NCBI GenBank assembly: GCA_041651355.1
Contig: JBAZJK010000001.1
Coordinates: 613,883 to 677,882, forward strand
DNA: 64,000 nucleotides
From: Patescibacteria group bacterium
GTDB taxonomy: Bacteria > Patescibacteriota > Patescibacteriia > Patescibacteriales > UBA12465
Reading direction: 5' to 3'
The notes beneath the pieces are model-generated. The model was not told the DNA's origin. It saw only the letters and a list, made by a program, of their open reading frames with translations, and searched no databases. The position numbers and the translations under genes were made by a program. Shown in pieces: positions 531-26,745 of this stretch. Every line of letters starts with the position of its first letter. Position 1 is the stretch's first letter.

Positions 531-1862
531 ATGACTCACAAAACCCGCCGCTGGCTTTATCGCTTCTTCATCCTGCTATTTATCATCCTGACAAGCTATA
601 CTTCCCTCTACGCCACCGGCTACCAACTTAATCTCCGAGGTCCTTGGCGCTTAAAGCGCTTAATCGTCAAAACCGGGACCCTAGCTATCAATTCCCAACC
701 CAGCGGGGCTAGCATTTATATTAATGACAAAAAACAATCAGATTTCTCTTGGAAAAATTTCAATGGCAAAACCTTAGCTACGCCCGCTAAAATAAAAAGC
801 TTGGCTCCGGGAGAATATGAAATCCGCCTGGAGAAAGATGGCTACTGGCCCTGGGAAAAACGTTTGAATATAAATGCCGAACAAACGACCTACGCTGAAG
901 ACATTAATCTCTTCAAGAAAGATTCGATTCTAAATATCTTGGAATGTGGCTGCCAAGAAATAGATTTAAACCCGAACCAGCGCTACCTGCTCTTGAAACA
1001 AGGGAAAAAAATCATCGATCTCCGGAATAACCGGGATTTTAAATTAGATATCAAAGAAGAAATAACTAGTTACCAATGGTTAAAAGACAGCGATCGGGTA
1101 TTAATCAATAATCGCTTGTTCGACCTAAGCACTAATAGCTGGACGGATTACCAAGAAATTATCGGTCCGGAAATCAAGAACCTATTCTATGATGAAACCA
1201 GTAACCGTCTGTACTACCAATACAAAGATTCCTTGAATTACTTTGAAAATAACAAAAAAATCAGCCAGAACCTAATAGACAAAAAGGATTACTCAAGCTT
1301 TTATCTCAAGGATGACCGCCTATTCTTATTAAGAAAAAAAGGGCAAACCCAGGTACTAGAATCATACAACTTAAAAAGTCATGCCCTTAAAGAATTATCC
1401 TTACCCGCTGGTGGCAATTATAGCTTCCATCTCGGTGATTCCGCCTGGCTGGAAATATTCGAAGAGAAAAGCCGCTCCCTTTTCCTAGTCGATCCAGAAT
1501 TTTTCATGTTGCCGCGAGAAGGCTTGAAAAATTTCCGGGGCGGCCTGTGGCTACAAGCTGACAAACTACTCTATCACACTGATTTTGAAATATATCTCTT
1601 CGATCTAAAACAGAACACTAAGACCTTAATGGATCGGGTCGGATATCCGATCAAGGACCTCGTCTGGCAAGCCAAAAATAACTATCTGATTTATGCGACG
1701 AGCGAAAGCATCAACAGCCTAGACTTAAGCAACCATAACAGCACCCGGCTGTTGGCGGCAGAAAATATTTCCTCAATCTTCTTGGATAGTAAAAATAATA
1801 CTCTCTATTTCACGGCGACTATCAACCAGAAAAGCGGTCTATACAAGATGATTGTCCAATAA
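531..1862 (+). CDS. N-terminally membrane-anchored PEGA-domain protein with repeat-rich (beta-propeller-like) C-terminal region
   Basis: One TM helix (WLYRFFILLFIILTSY). PEGA-like segment GTLAINSQPSGASIYINDKK...GEYEIRLEKDGYWPWEKRLNI. The ATG lies 3 nt after the murA stop. Confidence 0.55.
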   Translation: MTHKTRRWLYRFFILLFIILTSYTSLYATGYQLNLRGPWRLKRLIVKTGTLAINSQPSGASIYINDKKQSDFSWKNFNGKTLATPAKIKSLAPGEYEIRLEKDGYWPWEKRLNINAEQTTYAEDINLFKKDSILNILECGCQEIDLNPNQRYLLLKQGKKIIDLRNNRDFKLDIKEEITSYQWLKDSDRVLINNRLFDLSTNSWTDYQEIIGPEIKNLFYDETSNRLYYQYKDSLNYFENNKKISQNLIDKKDYSSFYLKDDRLFLLRKKGQTQVLESYNLKSHALKELSLPAGGNYSFHLGDSAWLEIFEEKSRSLFLVDPEFFMLPREGLKNFRGGLWLQADKLLYHTDFEIYLFDLKQNTKTLMDRVGYPIKDLVWQAKNNYLIYATSESINSLDLSNHNSTRLLAAENISSIFLDSKNNTLYFTATINQKSGLYKMIVQ

Positions 1863-21539: not shown

Positions 21540-22034
21540 CTACTTCTTCTTAGTTTTTAATTCTGCGGCTCGAGCAATCAAATGCGAGCTAGCTCTAATT
21601 TTCCGACCTAAACCATCGACCATCCTAATCCCTAATTTCTTGCAAACCTCGTATTCTGGCACATCATTAATATTGTGACGGTCACCGCCGTTAGCAAAAA
21701 TATCTGGCTTCAGCTTAGCTAGAGACTTAATAACCGTCTTGTCCTTATCGGTCGATAAAAATACTTGGTCGACATCACGCAAAGCTGCTACAATCGCCAA
21801 ACGATCCTTTTCCGGCATAAAAGGCACGCTACCCTTCAAGGCCACCTGCTTATCATTATTTACGATCGCCACTAATTTATCCCCCAACTTCTTAGCCTTA
21901 CTGATCATCTCTAGATGACCGACGTGTAGGGGATTAAAATAGCCAGAAACGGCTACTAAGACTGGCTTTTTAGAGCTAGCCGCTTTAGTTTTACAGCTCT
22001 TCCGAACTGGCGGACAACAACAATTATGAGACAT
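21540..22034 (-). CDS. Cytidylyltransferase-family nucleotidyltransferase (TagD / RfaE-domain-II-like)
   Basis: VAVSGYFNPLHVGHLEMI (the HxGH motif of the cytidylyltransferase superfamily), with a Cys-rich N-terminal tail. Confidence 0.7.
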   Translation of the reverse strand: MSHNCCCPPVRKSCKTKAASSKKPVLVAVSGYFNPLHVGHLEMISKAKKLGDKLVAIVNNDKQVALKGSVPFMPEKDRLAIVAALRDVDQVFLSTDKDKTVIKSLAKLKPDIFANGGDRHNINDVPEYEVCKKLGIRMVDGLGRKIRASSHLIARAAELKTKKK

Positions 22035-22106: not shown

Positions 22107-23105
22107 TTAATCGGAATATAACCAATAAATATCTAATAAACGCTTTCTCAAATTAAAGGTCTGGCCACTACTTAAAAGCCCTAAATAAGAAGCTAAGTTC
22201 GCCGGCTCTGAACGACAAGACATCTTTCTTAACATCCGCCGCCTAGTCTTGGTTCTTAAAATATAGTAATCGGGAAAATATATATGCCCAAGAAAATCAA
22301 CACCACTAGCTAAAGTTTTTAGATGCAATTTGGTTGGATGGAGTTCTAGTTTCAATCTTTCTCGCAAAAAACCTTCTAACAAGGTCAGCTTGTCTGACAG
22401 ATAATCACAATTGTCAGATAATATGGCAAAATCATCGGCATAACGAAAATAATATTTTACCTTCAAATCATTTTTTACAAATTGATCAAATTCATTCAGG
22501 TAGATATTAACGAATAATTGTGAGGTAAGATTACCCAAGGGCAAACCTTTACCGGGCTGGCAAGAAAAACTCCTAATAATATTTTCTAAAAGGCTCATAA
22601 TCCTCTCATCATCAATATATCTCCTTAAAATGACTATCAAAATTTCTTGATCAATACTATCAAAAAATCTCTTGATATCCGCCTGCAAAACCCAGACTGT
22701 TCTAGTTTTATTTAAACTAACTTTTCCACTAGCGCGACGAAATGCCAGCCCGGCTCGATGCGTCCCCTTGCCTAGCTGACAGGAATAAGAATGGGCAATA
22801 AAAAGCTGACTAAAAAACGGGTAAAGTTGGCGACAAACGGCATGATGGACGAGACGATCACGGACGCTGGCTTTATGAATATGTCTTAATTTAGGATCGC
22901 TGACATAAAAATCTTGATATCCTCCGTGTTGATACGAACCATTGGCAAGCTCAACCTGAAGTTGTAAAATATTATCGCCCAGATGTAAGGAAAATTTTAT
23001 CACATCTTTTTTATTTTTCTTACCAATAATAAATTCGCGCCAAGCCGCTAACAAATTTTCGCCATTACTTATCTCTGAAAATTTAATTAATGATTTTTTA
23101 CTCAT
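22107..23105 (-). CDS. DGR-type reverse transcriptase
   Basis: RT motifs ADIKRFFDSIDQ, LPLGNLTSQLFVNIYLNEFD (DGR-type motif 4), YFRYADDFAILS (YxDD), GVDFLGH and SYSCQLGKGTH. The ATG at 23105 (MSKKSLIKF...ENLLAAWREF) aligns with the N-termini of known DGR RTs. The ORF track extends to a GTG at 23156. Confidence 0.9.
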   Translation of the reverse strand: MSKKSLIKFSEISNGENLLAAWREFIIGKKNKKDVIKFSLHLGDNILQLQVELANGSYQHGGYQDFYVSDPKLRHIHKASVRDRLVHHAVCRQLYPFFSQLFIAHSYSCQLGKGTHRAGLAFRRASGKVSLNKTRTVWVLQADIKRFFDSIDQEILIVILRRYIDDERIMSLLENIIRSFSCQPGKGLPLGNLTSQLFVNIYLNEFDQFVKNDLKVKYYFRYADDFAILSDNCDYLSDKLTLLEGFLRERLKLELHPTKLHLKTLASGVDFLGHIYFPDYYILRTKTRRRMLRKMSCRSEPANLASYLGLLSSGQTFNLRKRLLDIYWLYSD

Positions 23106-23112
23106 GTAAAAT

Positions 23113-23469
23113 ATGCTAATATTACCCCCCCCCGATAAAAATTTTTCAATTCTCACAAAATTAAATGGAGCCTATCTTTTTTGGCAAGTTTCTTTCTTGC
23201 AAATGTCACGTTTGCATCGTTATTCCTTAGGAATCAAGATAGACAATCTTTTTACTGAAACATTAAAATTAATTCTAGCGGCCAAATATTCTCACCGCGA
23301 CCAGAAACTAGAATTCATTAACCAAGCGATAATAGAGCTGGACACTTTAAAATTTTTCCTCCAAATTAGCTGGCAAAATAAATCCTTGGATGACAAGAAA
23401 TATCTGCAACTTAGTGCTTCCCTAGCCGAAGTTGGAAAGATTATAGGTGGTTGGAAAAAACTGTTTTAA
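23113..23469 (+). CDS. avd: Avd-like four-helix-bundle accessory protein (23S rRNA-IVS protein family)
   Basis: FWQ...LQMSRLHRYSLGIKIDNLFTETLKLILAA...LDTLKFFLQISW...LAEVGKIIGGWKKL is the pattern of four-helix-bundle proteins found next to DGR RTs. An in-frame TAA at 23107-23109 forbids an earlier start. Confidence 0.6.
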   Translation: MLILPPPDKNFSILTKLNGAYLFWQVSFLQMSRLHRYSLGIKIDNLFTETLKLILAAKYSHRDQKLEFINQAIIELDTLKFFLQISWQNKSLDDKKYLQLSASLAEVGKIIGGWKKLF

Positions 23470-23472
23470 AAA

Positions 23473-23491
23473 CCCGCTTCAAAGAAGCGGG
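23473..23491 (-). terminator. GC-rich hairpin 9 nt 3' of the TR (intrinsic terminator on the minus strand)
   Basis: cccgcttc-aaa-gaagcggg, an 8-bp stem. The minus-strand reading is followed by TTTTT. Confidence 0.6.
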
Positions 23492-23500
23492 AAAACAAAA

Positions 23501-23640
23501 TACTTGCAAACAGCCAGGAAACGGCAATTCTCATTCCAGTCATTGTCAAACCAGTTGAGATTGAGCTTACGCCTGTTGTCGTCGACATCCAGATAAGGCG
23601 CGTTGCGATTGCCATTGGCATTCTGCCAAATAGAACCCAG
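23501..23640 (-). repeat. DGR template repeat (TR), 140 bp, non-coding
   Basis: Aligns without gaps to 23986-24125 (offset +485). There are 8 mismatches, each at a T on the + strand, which is an A on the sense (minus) strand of the TR. Confidence 0.9.
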
Positions 23641-23895
23641 TAAAAAATCGTCTCCCGCCTTCCTGGCCACCACCCCTTCAATATTTCGTCGGGGTTGAAT
23701 ATAACTTGGGATTTTTAAATCCGCCAGCGGGAAACGCCAAGTATTTTATTTTTAAAAAATAATAACCGGCACGCTAACCAACCGTTTAATTGATTATTCT
23801 GACCAAAATATTATTTTAGAATTCGGCCGCTTACAGCCGTAACCGTAAGCTGATTCGCCTACTATCCAAAGTCATCTTAGCATATTTTTATCTAC

Positions 23896-23932
23896 AAAAA
23901 AACCGCTTCTTCAACTTGAGAAGCGGTTTTTT
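23896..23932. terminator. Intrinsic terminator downstream of the DGR target gene
   Basis: aaaaaaccgcttc-ttcaacttga-gaagcggtttttt, an 8-bp GC core flanked by A and T runs. Confidence 0.7.
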
Positions 23933-23984: not shown

Positions 23985-24614
23985 TTACTTGCAAACAGCC
24001 AGGAAACGGCAACGCCCAACCCAGTCATTGTCAAACCAGTTGAGATTGAGCTCACGCCTGTTGTCGTCGACATCCAGAAAAGGCGCGTCGCGATTGCCAT
24101 TGGCATTCTGCCAAATAGAACCCAGGGCGATAATGGGAAATTTTCTCTGCAAGTCTGGGTATGATGCGCCCAGGGCGAGCAGTTCGACCAAGGTGGCAGG
24201 ACGATAGCCTTGTTTATCCATTTCTTCAATGGCTTTCTGACTACTGATACTGTGGCCGAAATGGAAAAGCTTGGCTTGGACCTGAAGGCTTTGCCCGGAT
24301 AGTTCTACTGGCAAGGGGAAATTTCTAGCATTAACGTCGCCGTTATTCCAGTCATAACGACCAGCGGCAATCATTTGCTCCAGAGTGAGAGAATAGTCAA
24401 TTTTGAGCAGGAACCCGGATTGTTCGGGTTTAGCCGAATTAACATCGATTTTGACCGGGTCTATCTGTCCGGTAACTACTGCGTACATCTTTTTAGCCAG
24501 CGCATTGTCGCGGCTGTTTATGATTTCCTGACAAAGTTCGTCAGTGAATCCGGCTTTTTTAAGAGCCAAGAAGAACTCATGCCCTTTTCCGAGAGCGGCA
24601 CACATTTCGTTCAT
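23985..24614 (-). CDS. DGR target (variable) protein, 209 aa, no signal peptide
   Basis: The C-terminus GSIWQNANGNRDAPFLDVDDNRRELNLNWFDNDWVGRCRFLAVCK is encoded by the VR. The upstream segment GYRPATLVELLAL resembles the conserved core that precedes the VR in C-type-lectin-fold DGR targets. Confidence 0.85.
   Translation of the reverse strand: MNEMCAALGKGHEFFLALKKAGFTDELCQEIINSRDNALAKKMYAVVTGQIDPVKIDVNSAKPEQSGFLLKIDYSLTLEQMIAAGRYDWNNGDVNARNFPLPVELSGQSLQVQAKLFHFGHSISSQKAIEEMDKQGYRPATLVELLALGASYPDLQRKFPIIALGSIWQNANGNRDAPFLDVDDNRRELNLNWFDNDWVGRCRFLAVCK
23986..24125 (-). repeat. DGR variable repeat (VR), the last 46 codons of the target gene
   Basis: 132/140 identity to the TR. Differences lie at 24013, 24014, 24016, 24019, 24020, 24053, 24079 and 24089, all opposite TR adenines. 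Confidence 0.9.
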
Positions 24615-24768: not shown

Positions 24769-26451
<1,683 letters not shown>

Positions 26452-26457
26452 TTATTA

Positions 26458-26745
26458 TTATTCAATAATTGCGATAATATCAGTCTCGCTTAAGACTAGA
26501 TATTCTTCATCATCAACTTTAACTTCATCGGGAGAATATTTCTTAAAGATAACCTTGTCTCCGACTTTGACATTCATGGCTGCTAACTGGCCATTGTCTA
26601 AAATCCGTCCCGGGCCGACGGCGATTACCTCGCCTTTTTCCGGCTTAGCATCGCTGGAATCGGGCAAAACGATGCCGGACTTAGTCACATCTTCTTTTTT
26701 TAGAGCCTTAACGATGACGTTGTTGGCTAATGGTTTTAGGTTCAT
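26458..26745 (-). CDS. groES: Co-chaperonin GroES
   Basis: LKPLANNVIVK...SGIVLPDS...GEVIAVGPG is the GroES pattern, located directly upstream of groEL. Confidence 0.95.
   Translation of the reverse strand: MNLKPLANNVIVKALKKEDVTKSGIVLPDSSDAKPEKGEVIAVGPGRILDNGQLAAMNVKVGDKVIFKKYSPDEVKVDDEEYLVLSETDIIAIIE

Follow-up and report, generated by a model that had tools for sequence, protein, structure and literature searches.

The diversity-generating retroelement (DGR) of Bordetella phage BPP-1, in which genes and repeats run in the order mtd-avd-TR-brt (PMC6182149; bioRxiv 10.1101/2023.10.23.563531), is the reference against which we describe here a DGR from a Patescibacteria genome (GenBank assembly GCA_041651355.1, contig JBAZJK010000001.1, positions 613,883 to 677,882; this whole stretch of 64,000 nt is called the window below). 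According to Handa et al. 2024 (bioRxiv 10.1101/2023.10.23.563531), the complex of the reverse transcriptase (RT) bRT with Avd is wrapped, in the Bordetella particle, by the RNA 3' of the template repeat (TR); the first element of this RNA is a stem-loop that binds Avd, and the RNA also provides the adenosine used for priming. With an analysis limited to 40 nt before and 100 nt after the TR, the same study predicted that 207 of 278 DGRs, those of the candidate phyla radiation (CPR) included, have such an Avd-binding stem-loop shortly after the TR. Among the RNA motifs found near RT genes, named RT-1 to RT-19, RT-10 lies between the TR and brt of BPP-1, and further motifs have been speculated to belong to DGRs (Weinberg et al. 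2017, PMC5737381). For the CPR, Wu et al. (2018, PMC5758913) name an architecture B3, “TR-(avd)-RT”, that consists of the TR, a reverse-strand avd, and the RT gene, and assign to it 90% of CPR DGRs. Simple-sequence repeat (SSR) contingency loci, described from Neisseria, Haemophilus, Campylobacter, and Mycoplasma (PMC11868660; PMC3315296), provide the other point of comparison.

The window locus (Table 1) is an intact DGR of the CPR/Patescibacteria type and an ordinary member of the catalogued B3 class, because the placement of its avd gene, directly upstream of RT on the opposite strand, matches the named B3 layout and is found in 148 of the 149 related loci with a detected Avd homologue. To this architecture we add a slippage-prone repeat in the first codons of avd and a structured RNA domain ahead of the TR, and we propose that the locus is probably a modular B3 DGR with an autonomous TR RNA and a phase-variable avd gene, hence with phase-variable DGR activity. 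Related loci were collected with the RT protein, at least 80 from a scan of one genome per species and at least 80 more from a metagenome scan, and ∼160 were compared. Nearly all loci of the species scan carry Patescibacteria/CPR labels, and their RT identities are 53-60%; thousands of Patescibacteria RTs share 53-63% identity with the window RT, and RT homologues at E ≤ 1e-60 number at least 7832.

The RT ORF matches Pfam RVT_1 (E = 1.2e-20 in a Pfam search of the window proteins), and its translation holds LGNLTSQ and YADD; the motif GxxxSQ is the DGR signature of RT. Its best solved relative in a PDB sequence search is a 328-aa RT, entries 8ub7-8ube (E = 1.5e-45), which we take to be Bordetella phage bRT, and group II intron RTs (7e-16) and retron RTs follow ∼30 orders of magnitude behind. 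A first-pass annotation of this DNA had called the 118-aa ORF on the other strand Avd-like and had named the lack of an HMM match as grounds for giving up that assignment; the product does match Pfam bAvd (PF22296; 47.1 bits, E = 3.8e-12, cut-off 40), while a PDB sequence search with Avd gave no match. The coordinates, gene order, and orientations in that annotation, and its 7-nt gap between the two ATG codons, all hold in the sequence. The window and BPP-1 share the RT family, a bAvd-family protein, adenine-specific differences between the TR and the variable repeat (VR), and a stem-loop directly after the TR. They differ in that avd lies upstream on the same strand in BPP-1 and is inverted in the window, and in that BPP-1 has its structured RNA, which supplies the primer, 3' of the TR (the ∼140-nt spacer, Rfam RT-10), whereas the window has a ∼226-nt structure 5' of the TR and a hairpin with a U-run 3' of it.

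The repeat in avd is a C9 tract, G9 on the RT strand. By our definition of an SSR (a G/C homopolymer of at least 7 nt, an A/T homopolymer of at least 10 nt, or at least six dinucleotide units), it is the only one in the window; it falls inside the coordinates covered by the first-pass annotation and was not remarked there. An SSR occupies the same avd site in 145 of 155 relatives, and 587 kb of related loci contain 72 SSRs at the avd site and three elsewhere. On the RT strand the motif is usually poly-G of 7-17 nt, but more than a dozen loci have a (GT)n, (GA)n, or (CT)n tract instead, 14-44 nt long; since the motifs are interchangeable, it is proneness to slippage that appears to be conserved, rather than a peptide or RNA sequence. 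The conserved N-terminal region of Avd (e.g. ..LPI(L/I)QK..) starts a few codons after the repeat, the window offers no ATG, GTG, or TTG from the repeat to codon 31, and an ATG near the RT start recurs in relatives, often as CATATG. We therefore place the avd start codon upstream of the repeat. The start codons of RT and avd are often back to back (CATATG) or overlapping (CATG) in relatives. Of 129 non-redundant loci with an SSR, avd is in frame with an upstream ATG in 38 and with nothing but a GTG or TTG in 9, whereas in 82 no upstream start codon is in frame. The ten loci of 155 that lack the repeat (L021, L029, L074, L077, L094, L110, L121, L153, L155, and L158) may be locked variants; six of them are in frame with an ATG, and in L029 the run is interrupted (GGTGGGGGG).

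To compare repeat length, contigs from different samples were grouped by RT genes with 100% identity over ∼1 kb, provided that the RT call does not cross the repeat; the length is polymorphic in all four informative groups. The alleles are (TG)9 (four contigs) and (TG)10 (three) in RT group P0103, G8 (three) and G9 (one) in P0034, G9 (two) and G10 (five) in P0097, and (TC)15, 17, 19, and 22 in P0113. In P0034, P0097, and P0113, one allele each gives a full-length avd beginning at a CATATG beside the RT start, and the avd called from the other alleles is truncated (123 versus 110 aa, 126 versus 112 or 95 aa, and 142 versus 84 or 40 aa, respectively); in P0103 the called product has 109 aa in all contigs. 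Three more pairs with flanks 99.7-99.8% identical also differ in repeat length. The P0008 RT, present in 10 places, was left out because its ORF crosses the repeat, so that an exact-protein look-up returns one length only. Public RT gene calls of some relatives likewise cross the repeat (P0008, 349 aa, is an example), and there the repeat length would also alter the annotated RT N-terminus. In the window, the RT frame is open upstream of its ATG at 23105, across G9, up to a GTG at 23156 (a 349-aa ORF; added part 23106-23156, minus strand).

On these features the avd repeat is, at the sequence level, an SSR contingency locus. With the loci described from Neisseria, Haemophilus, Campylobacter, and Mycoplasma (PMC11868660; PMC3315296) it shares a repeat in the first codons, length polymorphism, and a proportion of about one-third in frame. 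The gene that would be controlled, avd, is not a surface or restriction-modification gene; it encodes a component of a targeted hypermutation machine, in uncultured Patescibacteria, and its switching is proposed here from sequence comparison.

It is highly improbable that the repeat is instead a neutral hotspot or an assembly artefact, with the out-of-frame avd genes simply decaying and no switch at all. Unselected repeats decay, yet the same codons carry one in nearly all relatives, at RT identities of ∼55%, and repeats of this kind are almost absent from the remainder of the 587 kb and do not recur in the window. Sequencing of homopolymers and dinucleotide repeats is indeed prone to error, and some of the metagenome-assembled genomes (MAGs) come from long reads, but (TC)15, 17, 19, and 22 differ too much for stutter. 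The ON:OFF ratio equals that expected by chance, and the ten repeat-less loci also speak for this reading; against decay, however, avd downstream of the repeat is intact and conserved in the out-of-frame loci.

The repeat also lies 13-22 nt upstream of most RT start codons, and a second alternative, which we consider rather unlikely, is that it acts mainly on RT, from within a promoter (as part of the -35/-10 spacing) or a leader, and tunes transcription or translation, with both genes possibly affected. Poly-G or poly-C tracts in Neisseria promoters tune expression by their length. On the RT strand of the window (23119-23151), the order TTGAAA, 19 nt including G9, TAATAT, 13 nt, ATG would suit such a role, as would the TATTAT or TAGAAT found immediately behind the run, 7-10 nt from the RT ATG, in groups P0034 and P0097. 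Of 117 loci, 29 have a TAnnnT no more than 10 nt behind the G-run (background 6.8%), and in 34 the run is directly followed by TA. When loci are aligned on the repeat, however, no -35/-10 logo is conserved, and the hexamer is missing from ∼75% of loci; apart from this modest TAnnnT enrichment, position profiles to either side of the repeat reveal no conserved promoter motif. The dinucleotide repeats, of 16-44 nt, are too long for a promoter spacer, and the repeat always sits in the avd frame just after the start codon, the classical site of translational phase variation.

The other feature that we add concerns the DNA between the target gene and the TR, which the first-pass annotation treated as a spacer of ∼255 nt. 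That length is about right (259 nt from the target terminator to the TR), but the stretch is not a spacer: on the conservation and covariation described below, it is a predicted promoter followed by a structured RNA domain of ∼226 nt. Of 42 relatives, 33 have the extended -10 pattern TGnTAnnnT and 41 have TAnnnT (background 2.6%), in every case at a distance of 6-7 nt before the conserved 5' end of the RNA, which begins with G(A/G)UAGUAGG. The 3' half of the domain (A2), aligned over the 125 nt upstream of the TR in 63 loci, shows three helices: two hairpins, one of them with the conserved loop GAGAGUAUUCAA, and a 12-bp helix that closes the fold a few nucleotides short of the TR. Compensatory changes occur at 18 of the 20 pairs of A2. 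Of the alignment cells, 95.9% are paired; shuffling lowers this to 75%, and sliding of the partner columns to 32-54%. The 5' half (A3), the next 130 nt upstream, has 28 pairs, 24 of them compensatory; A2 and A3 together comprise 48 covarying base pairs. A covariance model of the 3' half, R1, matches the window at 23640-23766 (minus strand) with 85.5 bits and never matches a related locus more than once; its 133 matches there end at the TR start, all but one of them on the RT strand.

Rfam reports RT-16 (RF03019) in the window at 33.4 bits, which is below the gathering threshold of 50; in this match the 3' half of the domain spans the whole RT-16 model. No RT-16 match came from the 33 relatives scanned with Rfam, 17 at gathering scores and 16 at E ≤ 1; the 17 yielded no RT-motif match, only rRNA, RNase P, and tRNAs, and the further 16 yielded one weak RT-7 match. 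Like Rfam RT-16, RT-7, and RT-10, the window element is a structured RNA beside an RT gene, but it is longer and, unlike RT-10, lies 5' of the TR. A pairing of the P3 loop (GAGAGUAUUCAA) with the sequence just 3' of the TR, which would bridge the 5' domain to the priming site, was considered and rejected. In the window, this loop (GACGAAAUAUUGAA, 23686-23699, minus strand) could form an 11-bp duplex with the TR 3' junction (UAUUUUGUU, 23497-23509) at -8.5 kcal/mol; across 58 loci, however, the cognate mean was -5.84 versus -5.59 ± 0.13 for non-cognate combinations, variant loops had no advantage, and covariation did not support the pairing.

At the other end of the TR, a hairpin with a U-run follows within 3-16 nt in at least 72 of 96 non-redundant loci under a strict rule (a GC-rich hairpin with at least 5 T in the 7 bases after the stem), and such an element is visible in several more. 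In many relatives (L012, L015, and L044 among them) the hairpin holds the avd stop codon or encodes the C-terminal tail of Avd, such as KQNSPAKAGEK after the conserved GGW motif, one sequence thereby serving two uses; in the window it is non-coding. That the hairpin is kept whether coding or not points to conservation at the nucleic-acid level. For the 150 nt after the TR, antisense to avd, RNAalifold predicts no conserved pair, from an alignment in which MAFFT failed to align the variable-loop hairpin. The hairpin with U5 is probably the intrinsic terminator of the TR RNA; by analogy with Bordetella it is possibly also, or instead, an Avd-binding stem-loop. Because a conserved promoter motif precedes the RNA, a hairpin and U-run follow the TR, and no conserved structure lies downstream, the TR RNA looks like a transcription unit of its own, of ∼400 nt (23866 to ∼23468). 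The first-pass annotation had proposed a separate short transcript ending at the hairpin; its separateness agrees with this evidence, its shortness does not. A perfect TATAAT at 23445-23440 on the RT strand, with TTAAAA as -35, was tried as a promoter and discarded, as it is not conserved and relatives read GAGCAT there.

It is fairly unlikely that the TR RNA is not separate at all, the hairpin being an Avd-binding stem-loop that opens a Bordetella-like spacer and the transcript running on through antisense avd into RT, as a single TR-spacer-RT RNA with priming and RT-binding elements encoded antisense to avd. Such an RNA would resemble that of Bordetella, with its essential structured RNA and priming adenosine 3' of the TR, and would fit the stem-loops predicted in 207 of 278 DGRs; moreover, TR and RT share a strand, and RT has no recognizable promoter of its own. 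A protein-binding stem-loop, however, needs no U-run, and a run of 4-5 U directly follows the stem in at least 72 of the 96 loci. In the 150 nt downstream RNAalifold predicts no conserved pair, whereas the 5' domain has 48, and read-through would collide with avd transcription across the whole gene.

Under the arrangement that we favor, a modular B3 DGR with an autonomous TR RNA and a phase-variable avd, four modules would cooperate. The first would be the target gene with its 3' VR and its own terminator. The second would be the TR RNA, starting at 23866 and consisting of the ∼226-nt domain, the 140-nt TR, and the GC-rich hairpin with its U-run at the avd stop, where transcription would end efficiently. 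The third, avd, would be read from the opposite strand, and the fourth, RT, would diverge from it, 7 nt away. RT, Avd, and TR RNA would form the mutagenic ribonucleoprotein, with the 5' domain binding RT-Avd; the structured RNA needed by the proteins would lie 5' of the template in this clade, whereas it lies 3' of it in Bordetella phage. Changes in C9 length by slipped-strand mispairing would move the avd start codon in or out of frame, so that the supply of Avd, and hence the mutagenesis of target adenines, would be turned on and off, heritably and reversibly, among the members of a population. In this scheme the copy in the window is in the ON phase, as is the other contig of its lineage.

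Several points weigh against this arrangement. The window lineage consists of two contigs, both with C9, and the polymorphism is seen in relatives only. The first 12 codons behind the SSR contain an ATG, GTG, or TTG in 82 of 127 loci, and a TTG stands at the conserved Leu of LP(I/V)(L/I)QK in 35 of 102 loci, compared to 14% of avd Leu codons elsewhere; this TTG may be a secondary start that bypasses the repeat. Some loci may then make a slightly shorter Avd in any phase, and the switch would be between high and low rather than on and off. An ON:OFF ratio of 1:2 is also expected from a non-functional upstream ATG, and some of the MAGs were built from error-prone long reads. On the RNA side, the promoter, start site, and termination of the TR RNA are predictions from sequence patterns, and the post-TR hairpin could be an Avd-binding stem-loop with read-through (compare Handa et al. 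2024). If the TR RNA ends at the hairpin, it must be primed elsewhere than in Bordetella, whose priming adenosine is 3' of the TR and has no located counterpart here.

The broader proposal, that DGR hypermutation in Patescibacteria is gated by a slippery avd repeat and that their DGR RNA is permuted, with a 5' domain and only a terminator hairpin 3', is plausible, if somewhat short of probable. B3 architecture is already catalogued and by itself adds nothing. CPR bacteria hold a large share of the known DGRs. If the proposal is true, only part of a population would diversify its target protein at any time, and a conserved slippage switch in avd would be a concrete regulatory mechanism for DGRs in cellular, non-phage hosts, with bet-hedging between diversifying and stable subpopulations. 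It would also explain the many CPR avd genes annotated as truncated or frameshifted, and it predicts a link between repeat phase and VR heterogeneity that is measurable in existing metagenomes. A permuted RNA would imply a different positioning of the primer and a different stop for cDNA synthesis. For structural biology, an autonomous TR RNA with a 5' domain would be a natural permutation of the Bordetella ribonucleoprotein, and for engineers a compact, separately expressible template RNA. No earlier description of the avd repeat was found in the literature searched, which excluded Paul et al. 2017 (PMC5436926), a key paper on CPR DGRs; judged by title and abstract, papers that mention DGRs together with homopolymers or phase variation do not appear to cover it. 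We regard the repeat switch and the permuted DGR RNA as newly noticed with moderate confidence, no literature search having been aimed at the 5' RNA domain. The CPR B3 DGRs of Wu et al. (2018, PMC5758913) have the same order, orientations, and host group as the window, and the available portion of that paper does not mention the avd repeat, the promoter, the 5' RNA domain, or the terminator.

Table 1. Features of the DGR locus, in window coordinates.
Feature	Positions	Strand	Remarks
DGR reverse transcriptase (RT)	22107-23105	-	332 aa; ATG at 23105, stop at 22107
Gap between the divergent start codons	23106-23112		7 nt, gtaaaat; read from the sequence
avd	23113-23469	+	118 aa; divergent from RT, convergent with the TR RNA; in frame (ON)
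Simple-sequence repeat C9 (G9 on the RT strand)	23125-23133	+	avd codons 5-7 (PPP); lies 19 nt before the RT ATG; putative switch by slipped-strand mispairing
GC-rich hairpin and U5	23468-23491	-	stem from 23491 to 23473, 8 bp, 6 GC, then TTTTT; 9 nt after the TR, touches the avd stop
TR	23501-23640	-	140 nt, 35 adenines
Structured 5' domain of the TR RNA	23641-23866	-	∼226 nt, at least 6 helices, abuts the TR
Predicted extended -10 promoter of the TR RNA, TGCTAAGAT	23874-23882	-	predicted start 23866
Terminator-like hairpin and T-run after the target gene, A-run before the hairpin	23896-23932	-	read from the sequence
VR	23986-24125	-	140 nt; ends inside the target stop codon
DGR target gene	23985-24614	-	209 aa; VR at the 3' end

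The VR is 94.3% identical to the TR. All eight differences fall at TR adenines, for which the chance is ∼0.25^8 = 1.5e-5 with 35 adenines in 140 nt, and all eight fall at position 1 or 2 of a target codon; the adenine bias of TR/VR differences also holds in 111 related loci. A scan of the 64 kb found this one VR only. The final 27 nt of TR and VR, compared in search of a difference between the initiation of mutagenic homing sites IMH and IMH*, are identical. Identical TR/VR ends occur in other DGRs, and recognition must then reach downstream, according to Wu et al. (2018, PMC5758913). The target protein has no Pfam match and no PDB sequence match, and its C-terminal part resembles the targets of related loci. 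In the window, 345 nt separate the VR end from the TR start, and this spacing is mostly 320-360 nt across the 111 loci with a recognizable TR/VR pair; in the same loci, the distance from the TR end to the avd stop ranges from -21 to +110 nt and is mostly ∼6 to 40 nt. A hairpin and T-run equivalent to that after the target gene precedes the TR RNA promoter in the aligned relatives.

The first-pass annotation saw in the locus a novel, non-canonical layout, with avd and RT head to head and controlling each other through antisense transcription. We consider this improbable, since the layout is the known B3, and the conservation of the inverted avd among relatives, which that annotation had proposed to check by synteny, makes it the rule in this group. 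With starts 7 nt apart, the 5' regions or promoters of the two genes must overlap, and it does follow that each promoter would lie inside the other gene; a sigma-70-like TTGGCA-17-TAAAAT is present on the plus strand within RT (22942-22970). Promoter-like matches in the region are at chance level, however (9 found versus 7.3 expected), and no promoter motif is conserved around the starts. The antisense control of RT also suggested there finds no support: it is avd, rather than RT, that the TR transcript opposes, and the conserved terminator would restrict even this overlap. Assembly of RT, Avd, and TR RNA in trans had been presented as a departure from the Bordetella paradigm. It is no departure: Bordetella DGR components also complement in trans.

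The lineage of the window itself comprises one other contig, with an identical repeat; among the metagenome matches listed, none exceeds 59% RT identity. The cassette is flanked by ordinary housekeeping genes (21540-22034 and 24769-26745, both on the minus strand), with no adjacent mobile-element or phage genes. Downstream of RT lie a CTP_transf_like gene and a YceG gene, by their Pfam labels, and upstream of the target are ORFs of 555 and 95 aa whose translations, judged by eye, resemble GroEL and GroES. A few relatives do not follow the standard layout. The VR is placed downstream of RT and on the other strand in L047, L128, and L153; so is the 5' RNA domain (1530-1608, minus strand) in L092, where the contig end truncates it. 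One Doudnabacteria contig (CAWIZL010000002.1, 82-146 kb) carries three such cassettes, L004, L032, and L037, within ∼60 kb, with repeats of G10, G10, and G12.

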